5,935 bases of DNA from a virus: positions 1 to 5,935 of IMG/VR virus record IMGVR_UViG_3300045988_007371; one strand, given 5' to 3'. Below are positions 433 to 5,153 of the stretch, in pieces. The notes below the pieces were generated by a model, which saw only the letters and a list, made by a program, of their open reading frames with translations, was not told where the DNA came from and made no database searches. Every line of letters begins with the position of its first letter. The stretch's first letter is position 1. Both the position numbers and the translations under genes were made by a program.

Positions 433-823
433 ACGATACGAAGAAGGGCGAGAGCCCTTCTTTTCTGAAAGCGGAGAAAAATTCAGAAAGCAATACGTCT
501 GGACAAAAGACGAAAAAGGGCAAGAAGTGCTGCAAGAAACAGAACCGATCGACATTCAGCAAGAAATCGAAAGCTATGCAGACGAATGCGACATCAAAAA
601 CATTGTCCGAAAAGCAAGTTTTGACCCGCAGTTCCTTGAAAGCTTATCCGAAGGAGCAATGACGGGGGAAGAAGTGGACATCACCGAATTTCCGCAAAAC
701 ATTCATGAGTATCACCGCATGATTGCGACCGCACAGGCAAACGCAATGAAGCTTGAAGAGCTACAAAAAATGGAAGCGGAAAAAGCAAAAGCAGAACCTG
801 AAGCAAAGGAGGAAGAAAAGTGA
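425..823 (+). CDS. Internal scaffolding protein (VP3-like), 132 aa
   Basis: Same frame as track ORF 275..823, but position 275 is a TTG with no RBS. The ATG at 425 has GGAGG at 411-415 nine nt upstream and overlaps the upstream stop (ATGAATAA, 425-432). The product MNKRYEEGREPFF...ESYADECDIKNIVRKASFDPQFLESL...ITEFPQNIHEYHRMIATAQANAMKLEE... is acidic and helical, about 130 aa, and sits immediately upstream of VP1. All of this fits gokushovirus VP3. Its stop TGA (821-823) overlaps the VP1 GTG start. Confidence 0.8.
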   Translation: MNKRYEEGREPFFSESGEKFRKQYVWTKDEKGQEVLQETEPIDIQQEIESYADECDIKNIVRKASFDPQFLESLSEGAMTGEEVDITEFPQNIHEYHRMIATAQANAMKLEELQKMEAEKAKAEPEAKEEEK

Positions 824-2511
824 ATCGAAACAATGAACGACACTTCAACCAAATCCCAGAAATGAAAGCAAGTCGAACACGATTCAACCGAGACCAGACG
901 ATTTTAACAACATTTGATTCCGGGAAATTGATTCCGTTTTACGTTGACGAAGTATTGCCGGGCGACACATTTAGAGTAAACACGACAGCAATCATCAGAA
1001 TGACGACACCGAAGTTTCCAGTGATGGATGATGCATTCATCGACTTCTATTACTTCTATTGTCCAAATCGCATCCTATGGAAAAACTTTAAACAATTCAT
1101 GGGAGAAGTAGAAAATAAACCCTGGATGCCAGTAAAAACGTACAAAGTCCCAGAAATAAAAATCGAAGGAAGTGAAACCTCAGCAAAACCACTCGAAAAA
1201 AGTATCTTAGATTACATGGGCGTTCCAACGAAAGTAAAAAGACCCTTCAAAATTAACGCATTGCCAATCAGAGCATATGTAATGATCTGGAACGAATTTT
1301 TTAGAGACGAAAATGTAGGCAATGCGGCAGTATGGTCAGACGAAGACAGTGATGTAACATACGCACAAAGCTACAATGAAAACTCAACCAACGCGGACAA
1401 AATGCAAAAAGAGTTGAATGAAGCAATAACCGGCGGGCTCTGTCTACCGGTAAACAAGTTCCACGACTACTTCTCAAGCTGTCTCCCCTATGCACAACGT
1501 GGGCCGGAAGTGACGCTGCCAATGCAAGGCAATGCAAGAATATCCGGATACACAAATGATAAATTTAACGAAAAAGCACCACTATATGCAAACAGCTTTT
1601 TTGACGGAAGCACAAACCCGGGCAACATCAAAGACAAAATGTATGCAATCGCAGCAGATGGAGGCACAGGATCAGCATACTTAGCCATTGGAGACGGAAC
1701 AGGCAGTGACCATAAAGTAGTATACCTAGGCGCAGACCTTGGAAGCGTAACCGCAGCAACCATCAACGACTTGCGAAAAGCCGTAGCAGTGCAACAGTAC
1801 TACGAGGCGCTGGCAAGAGGCGGCAGCCGTTACCGCGAGCAGGTACAAGCATTGTGGGATGTAATTATCTCAGATAAAACTGTACAGATCCCGGAATATC
1901 TTGGCGGCGGCAGATACCGCGTCAATGTTAACCAGATCGTACAGACAAGCGGACAGCAGACCGACAAAGACACGCCTATTGGTGAAACCGGTGCAATGTC
2001 AGTAACACCCATCAATGAAAGCAGTTTTACGAAATCTTTCGAGGAACACGGATTCGTAATCGGTGTATGTTGTGTACGACACAATCACAGTTACCAGCAA
2101 GGGCTTGAACGTTTCTGGAGTCGAACGGACAGACTGGACTATTACGTACCTCAGTTCGCAAATCTTGGCGAACAGCCTGTCAAAAAGAAAGAAATCATGC
2201 TAACCGGCACAGCAACAGACGAAGAAACTTTCGGTTACCAGGAAGCATGGGCAGACTACAGAATGAAGCCGAATCGAGTATCCGGCCTCATGAGAAGCAA
2301 CGCAATCGGAACGCTGGACTTCTGGCACTATGCCGACAACTATTCAACCGTACCAACACTATCGCAGGAGTGGATGGCAGAAGGAAAGAAAGAAATCGCA
2401 AGAACATTGATCGTGCAGGATGAGCCGCAGTTCTTCGGCGCAATCCGAGTAGCAAACAAAACAACAAGACGTATGCCGTTGTACAGCGTACCGGGCTTGT
2501 ACAAACTGTAA
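820..2511 (+). CDS. Major capsid protein (VP1, phiX174 F-like), 563 aa
   Basis: GTG start at 820, preceded by AAGGAGG (806-812) with a 7-nt spacer. The N-terminal region RNNERHFNQIPEMKASRTRFNRDQTILTTFDSGKLIPFYVDEVLPGDTFRVNTTAIIRMTTPKFPVMDDAFIDFYYFYCPNRILW matches the conserved Microviridae capsid N-terminus (..HF..vP...i.RS.F......T.F..G.LiP....EvlPGDtf...). The size is typical of gokushovirus VP1. Confidence 0.97.
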   Translation: MNRNNERHFNQIPEMKASRTRFNRDQTILTTFDSGKLIPFYVDEVLPGDTFRVNTTAIIRMTTPKFPVMDDAFIDFYYFYCPNRILWKNFKQFMGEVENKPWMPVKTYKVPEIKIEGSETSAKPLEKSILDYMGVPTKVKRPFKINALPIRAYVMIWNEFFRDENVGNAAVWSDEDSDVTYAQSYNENSTNADKMQKELNEAITGGLCLPVNKFHDYFSSCLPYAQRGPEVTLPMQGNARISGYTNDKFNEKAPLYANSFFDGSTNPGNIKDKMYAIAADGGTGSAYLAIGDGTGSDHKVVYLGADLGSVTAATINDLRKAVAVQQYYEALARGGSRYREQVQALWDVIISDKTVQIPEYLGGGRYRVNVNQIVQTSGQQTDKDTPIGETGAMSVTPINESSFTKSFEEHGFVIGVCCVRHNHSYQQGLERFWSRTDRLDYYVPQFANLGEQPVKKKEIMLTGTATDEETFGYQEAWADYRMKPNRVSGLMRSNAIGTLDFWHYADNYSTVPTLSQEWMAEGKKEIARTLIVQDEPQFFGAIRVANKTTRRMPLYSVPGLYKL

Positions 2512-2550: not shown

Positions 2551-3414
2551 ATGAGCGCATTATCAGGACTCTTAACAGGGCTAAACGTAGCCGGAAACAT
2601 TGCAAGCACAATTGGAACATTTGCAAACGCTGGTAAACAAGTCGCCGGAATATTTGGCGGATGGGGTCAGGAAGGCAACAGCCAAAGCCAAGGCGGCAGT
2701 GTAAGCCAAGGCGGCGGTCATTCAGAAAGCGGAAGCTATTCGGGCACAAACGTGCAACAGGTAAACGACTGGCTAAAACAAGCATATGCATACCAAGGGC
2801 AAGAAGCAGCCATGCAAGGTAAATACAACAGTCAGAGTATGCTTAAACAAATGGGGTACAACACCTTACAAGCAATCATGCAAGGCATATATAACCACAT
2901 TGAAAACGGCGTAGCAATGAACTACAACAGTGCAGAAGCACTAGCAAACCGTGAATGGCAAGAACACATGTCAAGCACAGCATACCAGCGTGCAGTTGAA
3001 GACATGAAAAAAGCGGGACTTAATCCAATCTTAGCTTTTTCAAACGGCGGAGCAAGCACACCGGGGGGAAGCGCAGGAACAATTAGCGGTGCAAGTATGG
3101 GACTAGCAAGCAGCAGCGCACTAGGAGTAAGCAGAAGCGGCGGATTCGTACCGAACGCATACGAAAGCAACAGCTGGTCGAAAAGCGACTGGTACAACGC
3201 CGCAGAAAGCTGGCAACAGATGCTCAGTAATACACACATGACGCCCTATGGACTGACAAAAGCATTAACAAAAATTGCAAACGGCACAGACGATGCAATC
3301 AAAGATGCAGTAAAGCCAACAACAAAACAACCAAACAAGAAAAACTACATTAAACCGCAAGACAAAACGGGCAAATACGGAGAAAAAAGGGAACCGGGTG
3401 ATTATTTAAAATGA
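2551..3414 (+). CDS. Minor capsid / DNA pilot protein (VP2, phiX174 H-like), 287 aa
   Basis: It has a Gly/Ala-rich hydrophobic N-terminus (MSALSGLLTGLNVAGNIASTIGTFANAG), then a G/S/Q low-complexity region. It also carries NREWQEHMSSTAYQRAVEDMKKAGLNPILAF, which I recognise as the conserved core of gokushovirus VP2 (..sNTAyQR.v.DlkaAGLNP.La). Position after VP1 and before the rep gene fits. Confidence 0.92.
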   Translation: MSALSGLLTGLNVAGNIASTIGTFANAGKQVAGIFGGWGQEGNSQSQGGSVSQGGGHSESGSYSGTNVQQVNDWLKQAYAYQGQEAAMQGKYNSQSMLKQMGYNTLQAIMQGIYNHIENGVAMNYNSAEALANREWQEHMSSTAYQRAVEDMKKAGLNPILAFSNGGASTPGGSAGTISGASMGLASSSALGVSRSGGFVPNAYESNSWSKSDWYNAAESWQQMLSNTHMTPYGLTKALTKIANGTDDAIKDAVKPTTKQPNKKNYIKPQDKTGKYGEKREPGDYLK

Positions 3415-4430
3415 GTTGCTACAAGCCATTAATAAGGCTGTACAACCCGAACGATAAAGACATTAGCGGGAGGGTGTATTCACTCTCCCGCATTTCTCAG
3501 TTAGCGGGAAAACAGCTCAAATATGAAGATCTGATGTACAGGAAAGATATAATGTTGATACCATGCGGACAATGTATCGGATGTAGAATCAGACAAAGAG
3601 AGGACTGGACAACACGAATAGAATTAGAAGCACGAGATTATCCAAAAGAACAAGTCTGGTTTATTACGCTAACCTATGATGACGATCATGTACCGGGCAT
3701 GATAATAAACACAGGCGAAATCATGCGAAAAGTGCAATACGTCTGGAAGCCGGGAGAGAAGCGCCCTGAAAGCGTCCAAACGTTACTATATCCTGACATT
3801 CAAAAATTCTTAAAACGTCTCAGAAAGGCTTATAGGGGCAAATTACGCTATTTTGTAGCGGGAGAATACGGAGAACAGACAGCAAGACCGCACTATCACA
3901 TGATTCTATACGGGTGGCAACCAACAGACCTTGAACACCTGTACAAGATACAACACAACGGATACTTTACAAGTAAATGGCTAGAAAACCTATGGGGCAT
4001 GGGTCAAATACAGATAGCACAAGCAGTGCCAGAAACCTATAGATATGTTGCAGGGTACGTCACAAAAAAAATGTATGAGATAGACGGCCAAAAAGCAAAC
4101 GCATACTACGAACTAGGGCAAACAAAACCATTCGCATGCATGAGCCTAAAGCCGGGTTTAGGCGAACACTATTACCAAGAGCACAAAGAAGAGATCTGGC
4201 GGCAAGGATATATCCAATGCACAAACGGCAAACACGCACAAATTCCGCGCTATTATGAAAAAATGATGGAAGCAGAAAACCCACAAAGATTATGGAGAAT
4301 TAAACAGAACAGACAAGCAGCAGCAATTGCAGAAAACCGGCTAAAGTACGAAAATGCAGACTTTGCAGAACAATGTAAAACAAAAGAGAGAGTAATAAAG
4401 AAGCAGATGAAGAAGAGAGGGACACTTTAA
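3411..4430 (+). CDS. Replication initiation protein (VP4, phiX174 A-like HUH endonuclease), 339 aa
   Basis: The ATG overlaps the VP2 stop (ATGA, 3411-3414). Rolling-circle Rep motifs are present. These are a Cys cluster PCGQCIGCR (aa 51-59), motif I FITLTY (aa 84-89), HUH motif II PHYHMILYG (HYH at nt 3891-3899) and motif III YVAGYVTKK (nt 4044-4070). Motif III has two tyrosines spaced YxxxY, as in the phiX174 A protein. Confidence 0.96.
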   Translation: MSCYKPLIRLYNPNDKDISGRVYSLSRISQLAGKQLKYEDLMYRKDIMLIPCGQCIGCRIRQREDWTTRIELEARDYPKEQVWFITLTYDDDHVPGMIINTGEIMRKVQYVWKPGEKRPESVQTLLYPDIQKFLKRLRKAYRGKLRYFVAGEYGEQTARPHYHMILYGWQPTDLEHLYKIQHNGYFTSKWLENLWGMGQIQIAQAVPETYRYVAGYVTKKMYEIDGQKANAYYELGQTKPFACMSLKPGLGEHYYQEHKEEIWRQGYIQCTNGKHAQIPRYYEKMMEAENPQRLWRIKQNRQAAAIAENRLKYENADFAEQCKTKERVIKKQMKKRGTL

Positions 4431-4448
4431 CAGTGTCATAGTGTCACC

Positions 4449-4482
4449 TAGCCCAGTGCCTATCAAGTAAGGTACTGGGCTA
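4449..4482 (+). other. Stem-loop immediately downstream of rep (weak terminator or ssDNA structural/origin element)
   Basis: TAGCCCAGTgCC (4449-4460) pairs with GGtACTGGGCTA (4471-4482). This gives 12 positions with one G:T mismatch and a 10-nt loop, TATCAAGTAA. No clean T-tract follows (ttgtcgtc), so it is not a textbook terminator. It is preceded by the tandem AGTGTCA AGTGTCA (4432-4438 and 4440-4446) and a small GACACT/AGTGTC hairpin spanning the rep stop codon. Confidence 0.5.
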
Positions 4483-4537
4483 TTGTCGTCTAAGGACGCC
4501 ATGTATCGAACTATTCAGTCTATCAAATAATCCAATT

Positions 4538-4582
4538 CGCACGTGCGCACACGCGCGATAGCGCGCACGCGCGCACGCGCGA
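4538..4582. repeat. GC-rich alternating purine-pyrimidine (CG/CA) tract with nested palindromes and short tandem repeats
   Basis: The sequence is cgcacgtgcgcacacgcgcg-ata-gcgcgcacgcgcgcacgcgcg. It contains perfect Y/R alternation over 4538-4557 (20 nt) and 4561-4581 (21 nt). It also holds the 10-bp palindrome CGCACGTGCG (4538-4547), the tandem GCGCGCAC GCGCGCAC (4561-4576), and the imperfect direct repeat GCGCAC(AC)GCGCGATA (4545-4560 and 4571-4584). It stands out sharply against the A-rich remainder of the genome. Confidence 0.9.
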
Positions 4583-4600
4583 TATAATATTAACTTGTTG

Positions 4601-4621
4601 TAGGAGTAGTAGTAGTAGTAG
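4601..4621. repeat. (TAG)n trinucleotide microsatellite
   Basis: The sequence tag gag tag tag tag tag tag has five perfect TAG units (4607-4621), preceded by TAG and GAG. It reads as stop codons in one + frame. It also explains the spurious YYYYY run in the minus-strand track ORF 4480..4674. Confidence 0.95.
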
Positions 4622-4794
4622 TGGAAAAGTTGAAAAGTACTAAAATTTAACGTTAAAGCGTAAATAAAAAGCAAAAAACGCCGTTGAAAGTTTTGTTGAA
4701 AAATTGTTGAATTGTTGAAAGTCCGTCAAAATGACGAAAATCATTGTGCAACATTTTGTGGAAAACCTGTTGAAAGTGTTGAAAGTGTTGAAAA
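4621..4794 (+). repeat. Array of direct GTTGAAA-type heptamer repeats (iteron-like), ending in three tandem 9-mers
   Basis: Perfect GTTGAAA occurs at 4629, 4683, 4695, 4714, 4769, 4778 and 4787. Variants are GTGGAAA at 4621 and 4758, GTTGAAT at 4706, GTTAAAG at 4652 and GTCAAAA at 4725. All share one orientation. The last three form cTGTTGAAA gTGTTGAAA gTGTTGAAA (4767-4793). With equal base frequencies a given 7-mer is expected about 0.36 times in 5.8 kb. Confidence 0.9.
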
Positions 4795-5153
4795 CGCGCA
4801 CAGCGCTTACAATGAATGGATTAGCCGAGCTCCGCATACGCTCCGCACGGCAAGGCGCTAAAGCGCTTTCGAAACAAAGGAGCAAAACCGGGTTGCAAGA
4901 GAAGGTTACAATTTTATTACAAAACAGCAAAATCATTGAAAAACCTATTGACAAGGAGTATAATAAAGTCAGAGGAAGGAAGGTGTTCAGAATGACGCTG
5001 AAAAGCTACAAAATTGAAATGACAAACAAAGAAACAGGCAAAAGAGAAATTCGCCACACGCTGGCAGAAAGCAAAAAACTTGCAAAGTGTCTCATCTGGA
5101 CAAAAAAAGACATCATAAGCCAATGGAAGATAAACAAAATAGAAGAGGGTTAA
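4731..5153 (+). CDS. Hypothetical protein, maximal ORF model (140 aa); N-terminal 87 codons uncertain
   Basis: Track ORF. For: the frame stays open for about 91 codons upstream of 4992 in an A-rich strand, where I estimate roughly 6% of random codons would be stops. That is unlikely by chance. Against: there is no RBS before the ATG at 4731. The 5' end is built from the GTTGAAA repeats (encoding LKVLKVLK), and the consensus promoter lies inside it. An intermediate start is TTG at 4893, with AAGGAG (4877-4882) 10 nt upstream. This is an alternative model of the same frame as the 4992 entry. Confidence 0.4.
   Translation: MTKIIVQHFVENLLKVLKVLKTRTALTMNGLAELRIRSARQGAKALSKQRSKTGLQEKVTILLQNSKIIEKPIDKEYNKVRGRKVFRMTLKSYKIEMTNKETGKREIRHTLAESKKLAKCLIWTKKDIISQWKINKIEEG
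4829..4874. promoter_or_regulatory. Operator-like phased direct repeat and overlapping palindromes upstream of the accessory-cassette promoter
   Basis: GCTCCGCA occurs at 4829-4836 and 4840-4847, an 11-nt period. An 18-bp near-palindrome AAGGCGCT-AA-AGCGCTTT (4852-4869) contains the perfect palindrome AAAGCGCTTT (4860-4869) and overlaps TTTCGAAA (4867-4874). TTACAA is also repeated at 4906 and 4917, again 11 nt apart, just upstream of the -35 box. The regulatory role is inferred. Confidence 0.4.
4936..4964 (+). promoter_or_regulatory. Sigma70-type promoter for the accessory cassette
   Basis: The -35 box is TTGAAA (4936-4941). A spacer of exactly 17 nt (4942-4958) separates it from a consensus -10 TATAAT (4959-4964). 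The predicted start near 4971 lies just upstream of the GGAAGGAAGGTG RBS and the ATG at 4992. Confidence 0.65.
4992..5153 (+). CDS. Hypothetical small protein, promoter-proximal start model (53 aa)
   Basis: The ATG at 4992 has GGAAGGAAGGTG ending 6 nt upstream and sits about 20 nt downstream of the predicted transcription start. The product is MTLKSYKIEMTNKETGKREIRHTLAESKKLAKCLIWTKKDIISQWKINKIEEG. It is lysine-rich, has no hydrophobic segment and matches no family I recognise. The stop at 5151-5153 is 5 nt before the M15 start. Confidence 0.5.
   Translation: MTLKSYKIEMTNKETGKREIRHTLAESKKLAKCLIWTKKDIISQWKINKIEEG

Follow-up and report, generated by a model that had tools for sequence, protein, structure and literature searches.

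An inverted phiX174-like hairpin and a DnaA-trio-like cassette in the putative replication-control region of a gut gokushovirus

Gokushoviruses are among the commonest ssDNA phages of gut and environmental viromes. To our knowledge, their replication origins have no experimental definition, and a full-text literature search found no paper describing the gokushovirus origin element considered here. In phiX174 (Bullavirinae), the gene A protein cuts and religates a 30-nt site, CAACTTG^ATATTAATAACACTATAGACCAC, which lies inside the rep gene on the gene-sense strand and has an AT-rich spacer. The CRESS-DNA viruses (the geminivirus and circovirus nonanucleotide) and pT181-type plasmids have their HUH Rep site in a conserved hairpin loop beside a Rep-binding sequence, and in CRESS-DNA viruses, the genes may be on either strand relative to the origin. 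In rolling-circle plasmids, the single-strand origin (sso) is found on the displaced strand a short way 5' of the nick, and its structure is conserved while its sequence varies. The sso families have motifs such as RSB and CS-6 and are primed by RNA polymerase or primase. Origins of this kind, such as ssoA, ssoU, ssoT and ssoW, the PriA hairpin of phiX174, the primase hairpins of G4, and that of Ff, are long imperfect palindromes that pair on a single strand. The theta origins P1 oriR, pSC101, F, and RK2 have direct repeats and DnaA boxes beside an AT-rich region in a small replicon. The basal unwinding system (BUS) of bacterial oriC consists of DnaA-boxes, DnaA-trios, and an AT-rich DUE (Richardson 2016/2019; Pelliciari 2021, PMC8287927).

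The window analysed here is a stretch of 5,935 nt from the IMG/VR record IMGVR_UViG_3300045988_007371, a complete 5.8-kb virus genome without dnaA. The region of interest, 4431-4991 of this gut microvirus, had been described in a first-pass annotation as a long, structured, non-coding region with an origin-like layout. Every element listed there (a stem-loop, a GC tract, an AT block, a microsatellite, and heptamer repeats) was found at or near its given position and is non-random. The region is conserved and non-coding, and its identity is often above that of the genes. It matches 48 GenBank microvirus records, with an identity of up to 93% compared to a genome average of 84% in the same record, and is not unconserved filler. 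Folded as minus-strand ssDNA, the whole region had a z-score of -5.97. A search of the region against all Rfam families, with E up to 1, gave zero matches. From its sequence, we read it as probably a phage replication-control region made of separable modules: an inverted rolling-circle origin, a GC-palindrome single-strand origin, a DnaA cassette, and a promoter (Table 1). The origin-like character proposed in the first-pass annotation held in part, with replication-origin-type elements and a hairpin for ssDNA, but the anatomy proposed for it did not.

Table 1. Features of the intergenic region and their positions in the window
Feature	Position	Strand	Remarks
Conserved box AGTGTCACC (clade and family consensus GGTGTCACC)	4440-4448	-	Proposed Rep recognition segment
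Candidate origin hairpin	4449-4482	-	Arms 4449-4460/61 and 4470/71-4482, loop ~4461-4470, 13 pairs
Variable spacer	4483-4536		Low conservation in a 15-genome alignment; other small hairpins replace or extend it in relatives
GC-rich (CGCGCAC)n imperfect palindrome	4537-4582	-	21-bp hairpin on the non-coding strand; candidate single-strand origin
AT-rich block TATAATATTAACTTGTTG, proposed DNA-unwinding element	4583-4600	+	15/18 A/T (83%); adjoins the GC palindrome
DnaA-trio-like array TAG GAG TAG TAG TAG TAG TAG	4601-4621	+	TRF period 3, 7.7 copies (GTA/TAG 4600-4622)
Co-oriented DnaA-box-like 9-mers, ~10-11	4620-4797	+	TGT(T/G)GAAA type
Named boxes	AGTGGAAAA 4620, AGTTGAAAA 4628, TGTTGAAAA 4694, TGTGGAAAA 4757, 3 x GTGTTGAAA 4768-4794	+
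GC-rich conserved segment (GCGCACAGCGC...GGATTAGCCGAGCTCCGC...GGCGCTAAAGCGC)	4798-4870		~90% conserved in a subset of relatives
Sigma-70-type promoter TTGAAA-N17-TATAAT	4936-4964	+	11/12 consensus positions; best site of the genome
RBS AGAGGAAGGAAGG and ATG (4992) of the first accessory ORF	4971-4994	+	Sequence reading

The complement of 4440-4482 reads ACTTG^ATA-N10-CTAGGTGACAC, which matches the phiX174 gene-A cleavage site and its spacing. On the minus strand, the hairpin loop is TTACTTGATAG, and the box is GGTGACACT, the proposed counterpart of ...GACCACC in phiX174. The octamer ACTTGATA (4468 to 4461, minus strand) is identical at 8/8 positions to the phiX174 origin, which was checked in NC_001422 (CAACTTG^ATATTAATAACACTATAGACCACC), and the core ACTTG^ATA of the 30-nt site is the same in both. 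After ACTTGATA, the next 12 nt differ from phiX174, and the following 12-mer agrees at 7/12 positions with the same spacing. In our own alignment, CTAGGTGACAC(C) begins 12 nt past the G^A, like CTATAGACCACC in phiX174, and the 3' segments there, CTA..GAC(C)ACC, may be related. Where phiX174 has an AT-rich spacer and needs no hairpin, the corresponding 12 nt here form the 3' arm of a 12-13-bp stem that covaries, and the predicted cut site falls in the loop. The element also differs from phiX174 in being intergenic and, in this clade, in lying on the strand opposite the genes. Its arrangement resembles that of CRESS-DNA viruses and pT181-type plasmids, but the Rep family (superfamily I, two tyrosines), the loop sequence, and the bacterial host are different.

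The box was invariant in 40/40 aligned diverse genomes, a set for which the search pattern had selected for the box, and was also found in relatives identified by BLAST, without pattern selection. Box and hairpin together occurred in at least 210 IMG/VR contigs (~4-7.4 kb), every one a microvirus by VP1 match, and in 83 GenBank microvirus records. Some of the hairpin-bearing genomes have only ~30% VP4 identity. The element is also present, with ACTTGAT on the coding strand, in Chp2 and an E. coli gokushovirus prophage, where the counterparts of the box are CTAGGTGATAGC and AGGTGACACC, respectively; in phiMH2K, a recognisable element was not found. By our own reading, SpV4 appears to carry ACTTGATA at 1641 with a TAGGTGA-like tail. 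As ssDNA, 4449-4482 had a dG of -11.9 kcal/mol and a z-score of -5.4 on the plus strand, with 0/200 shuffles folding as well; on the minus strand, the z-score was -3.7. The hairpin of the window has an A.C mismatch on the minus strand. Covariation of the stem was calculated from 98 unique arm pairs with 31 distinct 5' arms. The arms formed 9.06 consecutive Watson-Crick pairs, compared to 5.20 +/- 0.21 after partner shuffling, and none of 200 shuffles reached the observed value.

The VP4 protein matches the Pfam family REP_ORF2-G2P (2.8e-17). Its motifs PHYHMILY and YRYVAGYVTKK can be compared to LHFHAVHF and FYVAKYVNKK of the phiX174 A protein, and it contains the two-tyrosine motif YVAxYVxKK expected of a cognate superfamily-I HUH Rep. 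We propose that 4440-4482 is a rolling-circle origin, in which the loop ACTTG^ATA, the 3' arm, and CTAGGTGACAC follow each other on the minus strand. Judging from these motif matches, VP4 would recognise the box and nick the minus-strand loop between positions 4464 and 4463 (ACTTG^ATA), and the predicted substrate is 5'-CCTTACTTGATAGG-3'. A family-wide hairpin with the phiX174 cut site provides a concrete, testable candidate for the gokushovirus origin.

The GC-rich palindrome showed a clear strand asymmetry. Its dG was -20.2 on the plus strand (z = -1.45) compared to -26.2 on the minus strand (z = -3.9), and the minus-strand fold was more stable in 29/29 distinct variants, with a mean difference of 5.3 kcal/mol. 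Across the variants, 95 G.T wobbles were counted on the minus strand vs 7, with full pairing only on the non-coding strand, while the gene strand of the hairpin carries A.C mismatches. On the minus strand, the palindrome (4582 to 4537) lies 55 nt 5' of the origin hairpin (4482 to 4449). Extensive pairing on one strand and a position just upstream of the putative nick, on what would be the displaced strand, are both features of rolling-circle plasmid sso, and here too the variants keep the structure while differing in sequence. By analogy with these origins, the GC palindrome most likely starts second-strand synthesis after infection. Unlike the known single-strand and complementary-strand origins, it is nearly pure alternating CG/CA and folds on the non-coding strand, and a motif of the RSB or CS-6 type was not recognised in it. 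ssDNA fold prediction bore out both the stem-loop (best on the plus strand) and the GC tract (best on the minus strand) of the first-pass annotation. Its suggestion of a complementary-strand origin that folds in the packaged strand gained a candidate in the GC hairpin, but this hairpin is written for the strand opposite the genes and not for the gene strand, as had been assumed.

The palindrome is followed by a 215-nt cassette made of the AT block, the TAG array, and the box-like repeats. TATAATATTAACTTGTTG is almost invariant from 4588 on. The heptamer GTTGAAA occurs in 4621-4794 as 7 exact copies, or 11 with the relaxed pattern GT[TG][GA]A[AT], all on the plus strand. Elsewhere in the 5.8-kb genome, GTTGAAA was not found, and TTTCAAC was not found at all. 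A position weight matrix of the boxes (143 sites, 15 genomes) has the consensus TGTTGAAAA. While the hairpin is conserved family-wide, the AT/trio/box cassette is confined to the gut clade: among the matches listed, it was present in 15/15 gut-clade contigs and in 0 of the other 195. In MG945447, the AT block, trios, and boxes are inverted together, as one unit. MG945219, considered as a cassette-less relative, was set aside as uninformative, since the record is incomplete and stops after the hairpin. Nothing similar to the cassette was found in a plasmid collection.

The cassette was compared to the BUS using three sequence features: at least three consecutive trios with a central A (consensus 3'-GAT-5' = 5'-TAG-3'); a box with up to 2 mismatches, in the TGTGGATAA orientation and, along the trio strand, at most 16 bp from the trios on their 3' side; and a second co-oriented box with up to 4 mismatches, together with a short GC-rich spacer. 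The S. aureus and E. faecalis oligonucleotides served as the reference for box orientation. In the window, TAG GAG TAG x5 is abutted by AGTGGAAAA (2 mismatches), and AGTTGAAAA (3 mismatches) comes directly after. In relatives, TAG-NNG-TAG-TAG-TAG is followed by a 4-nt G-rich spacer (GCAA, GGAG, AGAC or GGGG) and then TGTGGAAAA (1 mismatch); the window has extra TAGs instead of the spacer. The AT-rich unwinding region expected beyond the trios corresponds to 4583-4600. The strand form of the trios is the same as in S. aureus, C. difficile, and C. botulinum.

This layout can be set beside known and predicted modules. The validated S. aureus scaffold is 5'-TAGTAATAGTAGTAG-GTGC-TGTGGATTG-GTGGATAAG, and the validated E. 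faecalis scaffold is ...GGGC-ATGTTGATT-C-TGTGGAAAA. C. botulinum has (TAG)6-GGCT-TGTTGATA-TGTTAATAA, Ruminococcus albus is predicted to have TGTTGAAAA-ACC-TGTTGAAAA, and the phage clade has TAG-NNG-(TAG)3-GCAA/GGAG-TGTGGAAAA-GTTGAAAAG. The order and orientation are shared with the BUS: an AT-rich block, at least three TAG trios, ~4 nt of G-rich spacer, and two abutting boxes. Boxes of the same type are found in the E. faecalis scaffold, which has been tested, and in oriC modules predicted for R. albus, C. botulinum, and Butyrivibrio, and TGTTGA- and TGTGGAAAA-type boxes are common to the cassette and to Enterococcus, Clostridium, and Ruminococcus origins. Unlike the BUS, the cassette is located in a 5.8-kb rolling-circle ssDNA phage, away from the chromosome-origin setting beside dnaA/dnaN; most of its boxes depart from the E. 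coli consensus at 2-3 positions; ~8 more co-oriented boxes follow the first two; and in the window, the trio run is expanded over the spacer. A strict canonical-box test was passed by 32/49 relatives. The strict trio+box+box pattern occurred once in 839 kb of DNA from other microviruses and 16 times in 1.46 Mb from unrelated viruses.

The first-pass annotation had taken the heptamers and microsatellite for Rep iterons, but they resemble DnaA boxes and DnaA-trios instead. Iteron origins have 17-22-bp iterons and a replicon-encoded initiator, whereas the repeats here are 9-mers, 8-13 bp apart. The only replication protein in the genome is the HUH nickase, and the ORFs downstream vary and match no protein family. 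In contrast to P1 oriR, pSC101, F, and RK2, there is no iteron-type initiator gene, the repeats themselves are DnaA-box-like, and trios are present. From these resemblances, the most likely role of the cassette is to bring host DnaA to the double-stranded replicative form (RF). DnaA could then open the DNA and load the host helicase, resulting in auxiliary DnaA-dependent RF replication, or it could couple phage replication and transcription to host DnaA. We know of no precedent for a DnaA-dependent step in Microviridae.

Another possible explanation is that the GTTGAAA array and TAG repeat are iterons for a non-DnaA protein, such as VP5, a small accessory protein, or a Spo0A-type host regulator (box TGTCGAA), and that the likeness to oriC is coincidental. 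The majority of the repeats read TGTTGAAA. This sequence departs from TGTGGATAA at positions 4 and 7, and it has 2-3 mismatches to the E. coli DnaA box. Canonical-box matches are only ~2-fold enriched in the region, and 17/49 relatives failed the strict test. TGTTGAA is one base from the 0A box, and phi29-type phages use 0A boxes. We consider this explanation unlikely, though not negligible, since the layout matches the validated scaffolds in order, orientation, and spacing, boxes of the TGTTGA type lie beside trios in the tested E. faecalis origin and in those of C. botulinum, Butyrivibrio, and R. albus, and several phage copies, TGTGGAAAA or TGTTGATAA, have a single mismatch to the canonical box. 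Conservation of the array next to variable downstream genes also makes a dedicated accessory binder unlikely. The Spo0A-box reading of TGTTGAA was not retained except as part of this explanation.

If the DnaA-trio/DnaA-box module works, a minimal rolling-circle virus would be exploiting the host initiator in a new way. The module would then also provide a sequence-based host clue, namely the Clostridia-type boxes, and might explain the long-term gut carriage of these phages. The trios and boxes of the proposed captured module would be those of a Clostridia-like host, and the clade is abundant in the mammalian gut. In a VP4 scan of genome contigs, only one microvirus contig was found, binned into a Prevotella MAG, and the dnaA region of that MAG has no such box cluster.

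The orientation of the hairpin differs between genomes. Among the matches listed, ACTTGAT was on the coding strand in 178/210 genomes (canonical) and on the non-coding strand in 32/210 (inverted; the window and 31 others). Also among the matches listed, canonical genomes had a coding-strand AT skew between -0.34 and +0.23, and inverted genomes one between +0.22 and +0.44. In the capsid gene, third codon positions gave an AT3 of -0.455 for canonical compared to +0.39 and +0.57 for inverted genomes, and a GC3 of +0.09 compared to -0.20 and -0.33. In both groups, therefore, the strand that reads ACTTGAT is rich in T and G at silent sites. The canonical sister genomes L215 and L210 had intermediate silent-site skews. 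Since the hairpin is inverted relative to most gokushoviruses, the displaced, encapsidated strand is expected to be antisense to the mRNAs. The backward-pointing hairpin therefore suggests a virion strand opposite to the genes, and the flip in the sign of silent-site composition with hairpin orientation supports packaging of the antisense strand.

Three further comparisons were made. The capsid tree has ~5 orientation changes, only 2-3 of them on supported branches, and because independent changes are so few, a phylogenetically independent sign test cannot reach p = 0.05. Polarised C>T vs G>A counts from 4 inverted and 12 canonical triplets, in sequences too divergent for this count, showed no reversed asymmetry (ratio 1.23 inverted, 1.59 canonical). 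In the 150-nt flanks, the ACTTGAT strand folded better in both groups (canonical 58 vs 27), a result confounded by G+T content.

A different reading of the hairpin is that 4449-4482 is an orientation-indifferent signal (for example a cruciform, a Rep operator, or a transcription terminator downstream of VP4) rather than a nick site, and that the gene-sense strand is packaged. This would fit the position of the hairpin directly after the VP4 stop, the T-rich run after it in several relatives (e.g., GGGCTTTTGTCGTTT in KT264791), and the polarised counts in these divergent sequences, and all characterised Microviridae known to us are described as positive-sense. We give this reading a low probability. 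In the canonical orientation (178 genomes among the matches listed, Chp2, and the E. coli prophage), CTAGGTGACACC comes after the stem in place of a T-run, and an intrinsic terminator was rejected on this ground. An invariant loop and box with stems that covary across Reps of ~30% identity would be unexpected for a terminator. The match to the phiX174 cleavage site with the right spacing, the silent-site AT and GC skew signs that follow hairpin orientation, and the adjoining GC hairpin specific to the non-coding strand also favor a nick site and an antisense virion strand.

Taking the hairpin and the cassette together, we tentatively suggest, as a possibility somewhat short of an even chance, that the gut gokushovirus clade and at least 2-4 other microvirus lineages with an inverted Rep hairpin package the antisense strand, and that the gut clade captured a chromosome-type DnaA unwinding origin, resulting in DnaA-dependent, plasmid-like RF replication or maintenance beside the rolling-circle synthesis of virion DNA. 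If the inverted orientation does reflect antisense packaging, the textbook positive-sense rule for microviruses would fail in whole clades, with consequences for strand-specific virome methods, mutational-bias models, and annotation.

In the original interpretation of this region, the GC clamp, AT block, microsatellite, and heptamers formed a VP4-dependent viral-strand origin, with the gene-sense strand packaged and folding here for complementary-strand synthesis. The elements of this block are real, ordered, and conserved within the clade, but the interpretation is now very improbable. What looks like the Rep site comprises the upstream box and the first stem-loop, and this element occurs in genomes without the rest: among the matches listed, the cassette is missing from 195/210 genomes with the Rep-type hairpin. 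The cassette is inverted relative to the hairpin in MG945447, the GC hairpin has its A.C mismatches on the gene strand, and we know of no phiX174-type HUH Rep that uses an iteron array. A gene-strand nick site of the phiX174 kind at AACTTG (4592-4597) was rejected, since this sequence is not conserved (ATTTG/AGTTG in L016, L012, and L061).

It is extremely improbable that part of the region is protein-coding: a 140-codon frame (4731-5153) and a 104-codon minus-strand frame (4640-4954) are open in the window, phrog_15214 is a weak PHROG match (E = 0.004), and some GenBank records have a 'hypothetical protein' annotated here, but the first frame, open because the repeat composition is stop-poor, varies from 46 to 98 codons among relatives, is missing in the close relatives L115 and L229, and crosses the consensus promoter and RBS, and the alignment of 4800-4870 has 1-nt indels, so both frames were rejected for non-conservation and indels. 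The conserved segment at 4798-4870 is replaced by other GC-rich DNA in the remaining relatives, and its fold z-score was ~0 on both strands.

The region ends with the start of the accessory genes. The first accessory ORF (53 aa) had no PHROG or Pfam match. The promoter, which was absent from the first-pass list, would drive transcription of these genes. The pair of TTGAAA/TTGACA and TATAAT is kept at the same position in relatives.

The window holds the complete genome of a gokushovirus, circular and about 5,837 nt long; bases 1-98 recur at the end (IMG/VR class: direct terminal repeats), and all of its genes are on the + strand. The first-pass annotation had described the gap after rep as origin-like, and all the elements it listed were found there: a stem-loop, an alternating GC palindrome, an AT-rich block, a microsatellite (7.7 copies of GTA/TAG at 4600-4622) and heptamer repeats. 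GTTGAAA occurs in seven exact copies, all in the gap and on the + strand, and is absent from the other 5.3 kb. The stem-loop at 4449-4482 gave z = -5.4 when folded as single-stranded DNA. The gap did not prove to be unconserved filler, since it has matches in 48 GenBank microvirus records, the closest of them 93% identical here and 84% identical over the whole genome. When the gap was aligned with 14 relatives using MAFFT, invariant and variable blocks alternated sharply, and no reading frame was conserved in the alignment. A search of the gap against Rfam gave no matches. The origin reading therefore held as far as a conserved, non-coding region with origin-type elements is concerned, but the roles of the elements shifted: the candidate Rep origin is the stem-loop, on the - strand, and the heptamers resemble DnaA boxes. 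For other microvirus clades, one paper has searched for hairpins that might act as complementary-strand origins (PMC9865509). Our full-text literature search found no description of a gokushovirus origin, of DnaA boxes in Microviridae or of antisense packaging.

Features of the window and of the gap
Feature	Position	Strand	Details
Genes 5' of gap, in order		+	small basic protein, VP5, VP3, VP1, VP2, VP4/Rep
VP1	820-2511	+	
VP4/Rep	3411-4430	+	
Gap	4431-4991		561 nt, between VP4/Rep and 53-aa ORF
Hairpin element	4440-4482	-	stem-(T)TACTTGAT(A)-stem-CTAGGTGACACC
Predicted VP4 target	4464/4463	-	5'-...CCTTACTTGATAGG...-3'; predicted cut after ACTTG, between 4464 and 4463
GC palindrome	4537-4582		
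Cassette, in order	4583-4797	+	AT-rich block, TAG GAG TAG TAG TAG TAG TAG, AGTGGAAAA, AGTTGAAAA, about 8 further co-oriented TGT(T/G)GAAA units
GC-rich segment	4798-4870		GCGCACAGCGC...GGATTAGCCGAGCTCCGC...GGCGCTAAAGCGC; non-coding, 1-nt indels
Sigma-70 promoter	4936-4964		11/12 match, best in genome
Genes 3' of gap, in order		+	53-aa ORF, M15 peptidase, two small ORFs

The hairpin element is spread far beyond the close relatives of the window. A BLAST search with 4438-4484 alone matched 83 microvirus records; some of these are genomes of 4.1-4.7 kb, from insects, birds and tunicates, that have no other part of the gap. In IMG/VR, two pattern scans for GGTGTCACCTAG-N9-10-ATCAAGT together found at least 210 microvirus contigs, which match VP1 and measure about 4-7.4 kb, and in many of these VP4 is only about 30% identical to that of the window. 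The stem arms are diverse (31 distinct 5' arms) yet still complementary, with 9.06 consecutive Watson-Crick pairs compared to 5.20 +/- 0.21 when partners were shuffled. Unlike the stems, the loop and the upstream box are invariant. In the window (4432-4460), the box is AGTGTCACC, where the clade consensus is GGTGTCACC, and an additional AGTGTCAT duplication lies immediately upstream. G4458, which is A in relatives, pairs as G.T on the + strand but leaves the - strand stem with an A.C mismatch.

The phiX174 origin, checked in NC_001422, reads CAACTTG^ATATTAATAACACTATAGACCACC, and A4306 is annotated as the origin. Its 8-mer ACTTGATA is identical in the element of the window, and in each, 12 nt separate the cut from the start of a related CTA..GAC(C)ACC segment. 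VP4 carries an HUH motif, and its two-tyrosine motif, YVAGYVTKK, is nearly the same as YVAKYVNKK of phiX174 protein A. Because of the phiX174-like core, the spacing, the VP4 motifs and the family-wide covarying hairpin, we infer that 4440-4482 is the VP4 origin. It would work much like the phiX174 origin, but the predicted cut site sits in the loop, as is also the case in CRESS-DNA viruses. Also, a phiX174-type origin lies on the gene-sense strand, and the hairpin of the window does not.

Among the matches listed, ACTTGAT reads on the coding strand (canonical orientation) in 178 of 210 contigs. Chlamydia phage Chp2 has this orientation, with a 14-bp stem, the loop TCTACTTGAT and then CTAGGTGATAGC. 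So do gokushovirus prophages found in 6 of 5,426 complete E. coli genomes. In the E. coli E9 chromosome (NZ_CP104500.1, locus 3501-3540), the coding strand reads GGCACAGTGCCTTACTTGATGTAACTGTGCCAGGTGACACC and the element is flanked by a VP3-like gene and the capsid gene, which offers a possible laboratory model for origin tests. Among the same matches, the inverted orientation, with ACTTGAT on the non-coding strand, occurs in the window, throughout its gut clade (15 of 15 contigs) and in 17 small genomes.

Base composition follows the orientation. Coding-strand AT skew ranges from -0.34 to +0.23 in canonical genomes and from +0.22 to +0.44 in inverted ones. At the third codon positions of the capsid gene, AT3 changes sign, from -0.455 (canonical) to +0.39 in the gut clade and +0.57 in the small inverted genomes, and GC3 goes from +0.09 to -0.20 and -0.33, respectively. 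Since both signs flip with the orientation, in both groups the strand that bears ACTTGAT is rich in T and G at silent sites, as expected of a strand that is single-stranded part of the time. One comparison of sisters gives a clean mirror image, with skews of +0.59/-0.51 in contig L188 compared to -0.39 to -0.20 / +0.18 to +0.32 in contigs L234, L214 and L252. On the capsid tree there are about five orientation changes, only two or three of them on well-supported branches and, thus, a phylogenetically independent sign test cannot reach 0.05. Polarised substitutions gave no sign of a reversal in the bias of C>T versus G>A. The inverted origin leads to a surprising, testable prediction, antisense packaging.

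Two canonical sisters of inverted genomes (IMG/VR contigs L215 and L210) have intermediate silent-site skews, with AT3 of about +0.15 and negative GC3. It looks as if their orientation flipped recently and composition is still short of re-equilibration. Bdellovibrio phage phiMH2K (AF306496), which is cultivable, has skews resembling the inverted group (capsid AT3 +0.34, GC3 -0.64, coding-strand AT skew +0.29); no recognisable GGTGTCACC/ACTTGAT hairpin was found in it.

The GC palindrome is also asymmetric, so the inverted origin is accompanied by two independent kinds of strand asymmetry, composition and palindrome structure. In the window, the palindrome folds on the - strand into an uninterrupted 21-bp stem (-26.2 kcal/mol, z = -3.9), compared to -20.2 kcal/mol and z = -1.45 on the + strand. 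In all 29 distinct variants the - strand is more stable, by a mean of 5.3 kcal/mol, and G.T wobbles number 95 in the - strand folds and 7 in the + strand folds. Thus, wherever the palindrome is imperfect, one strand has a wobble and the opposite strand an A.C mismatch. That the imperfections pair as wobbles on the - strand indicates that the palindrome is selected as single-stranded - strand. Coding-strand substitutions show C>T slightly above G>A, which, if anything, favours the opposite asymmetry. Along the - strand, the palindrome is on the 5' side of the origin hairpin, 55 nt away, and the single-strand origin (sso) of rolling-circle plasmids sits at a comparable place, 5' of the nick origin. 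By this analogy, the palindrome, which has the structure and position of an sso, is a candidate start site of second-strand synthesis.

The cassette resembles a different kind of origin. In bacteria, the basal unwinding system (BUS) of oriC consists of DnaA boxes, a short GC-rich spacer, at least three DnaA-trios (3'-GAT-5') and an AT-rich region, with the trios on the 5' tail relative to the boxes (PMC8287927). Relatives of the window have TAG-NNG-TAG-TAG-TAG, a 4-nt G-rich spacer, TGTGGAAAA, one mismatch from a DnaA box, and GTTGAAAAG. This is the form of the scaffolds tested for S. aureus, 5'-TAGTAATAGTAGTAG-GTGC-TGTGGATTG-GTGGATAAG, and E. faecalis, 5'-...AAAGTAATA-GGGC-ATGTTGATT-C-TGTGGAAAA (PMC8287927 supplement). 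The same box type occurs in the origins of C. botulinum, (TAG)6-GGCT-TGTTGATA-TGTTAATAA, and C. difficile, TCATAGTAGTAATAGTAGTAGGTG, and a predicted Ruminococcus albus module, TGTTGAAAA-ACC-TGTTGAAAA, compares with TGTGGAAAA-CC-TGTTGAAAG at 4757-4776 of the window. The cassette thus has the sequence features of a bacterial BUS but not its chromosomal context. At 4607-4621, the window has five consecutive TAGs compared to three and the spacer in relatives; its trio array appears to have grown over the spacer through microsatellite slippage.

The cassette is limited to a mammalian-gut clade, where 44 GenBank records and each of the 15 IMG/VR members have it, with no instance in the other 195 hairpin-bearing contigs among the matches listed. 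A strict trio+box+box pattern is rare in control sequences: it matched once in other microviruses (839 kb) and 16 times in 1.46 Mb of unrelated viral contigs. One relative, CALBJK010000280.1, has the cassette and the same gap architecture with a VP4 only 51% identical to that of the window; here conservation, or else mobility, is greater for the non-coding modules than for the Rep gene. This record is a whole 5,840-nt microvirus contig binned into an uncultured Prevotella MAG, and such binning is weak evidence of host. In MG945447.1 (locus 887-1100), the cassette is inverted as one 215-nt unit, while hairpin, palindrome and promoter retain their orientation. The flanks of the inverted cassette are GCGCCGTAAAAT and GACGGCGTAAACGCGC. 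Given the unit inversion and the clade distribution, the cassette behaves as a self-contained element acting on double-stranded DNA.

The array may be bound by a protein other than DnaA, for example of the Spo0A type. Most boxes are 2-3 mismatches from the E. coli consensus, and 17 of 49 relatives fail a strict canonical-box test. On the other side, boxes of the TGTTGA type function, since the tested E. faecalis scaffold carries them. The cassette most likely recruits host DnaA to the replicative form (RF). DnaA would open the AT-rich block via the trios, which could allow a helicase to be loaded for RF replication, or could tie the phage to the initiation state of the host. Phage use of DnaA is, again, a surprising and testable prediction. 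The boxes are of a type that suggests a Clostridia-like host.

Beyond the cassette, the GC-rich segment is conserved in part of the clade, with other GC-rich DNA in its place elsewhere, and its fold gave no significant signal. The position of the promoter is conserved, and an RBS and the first accessory ORF come next.
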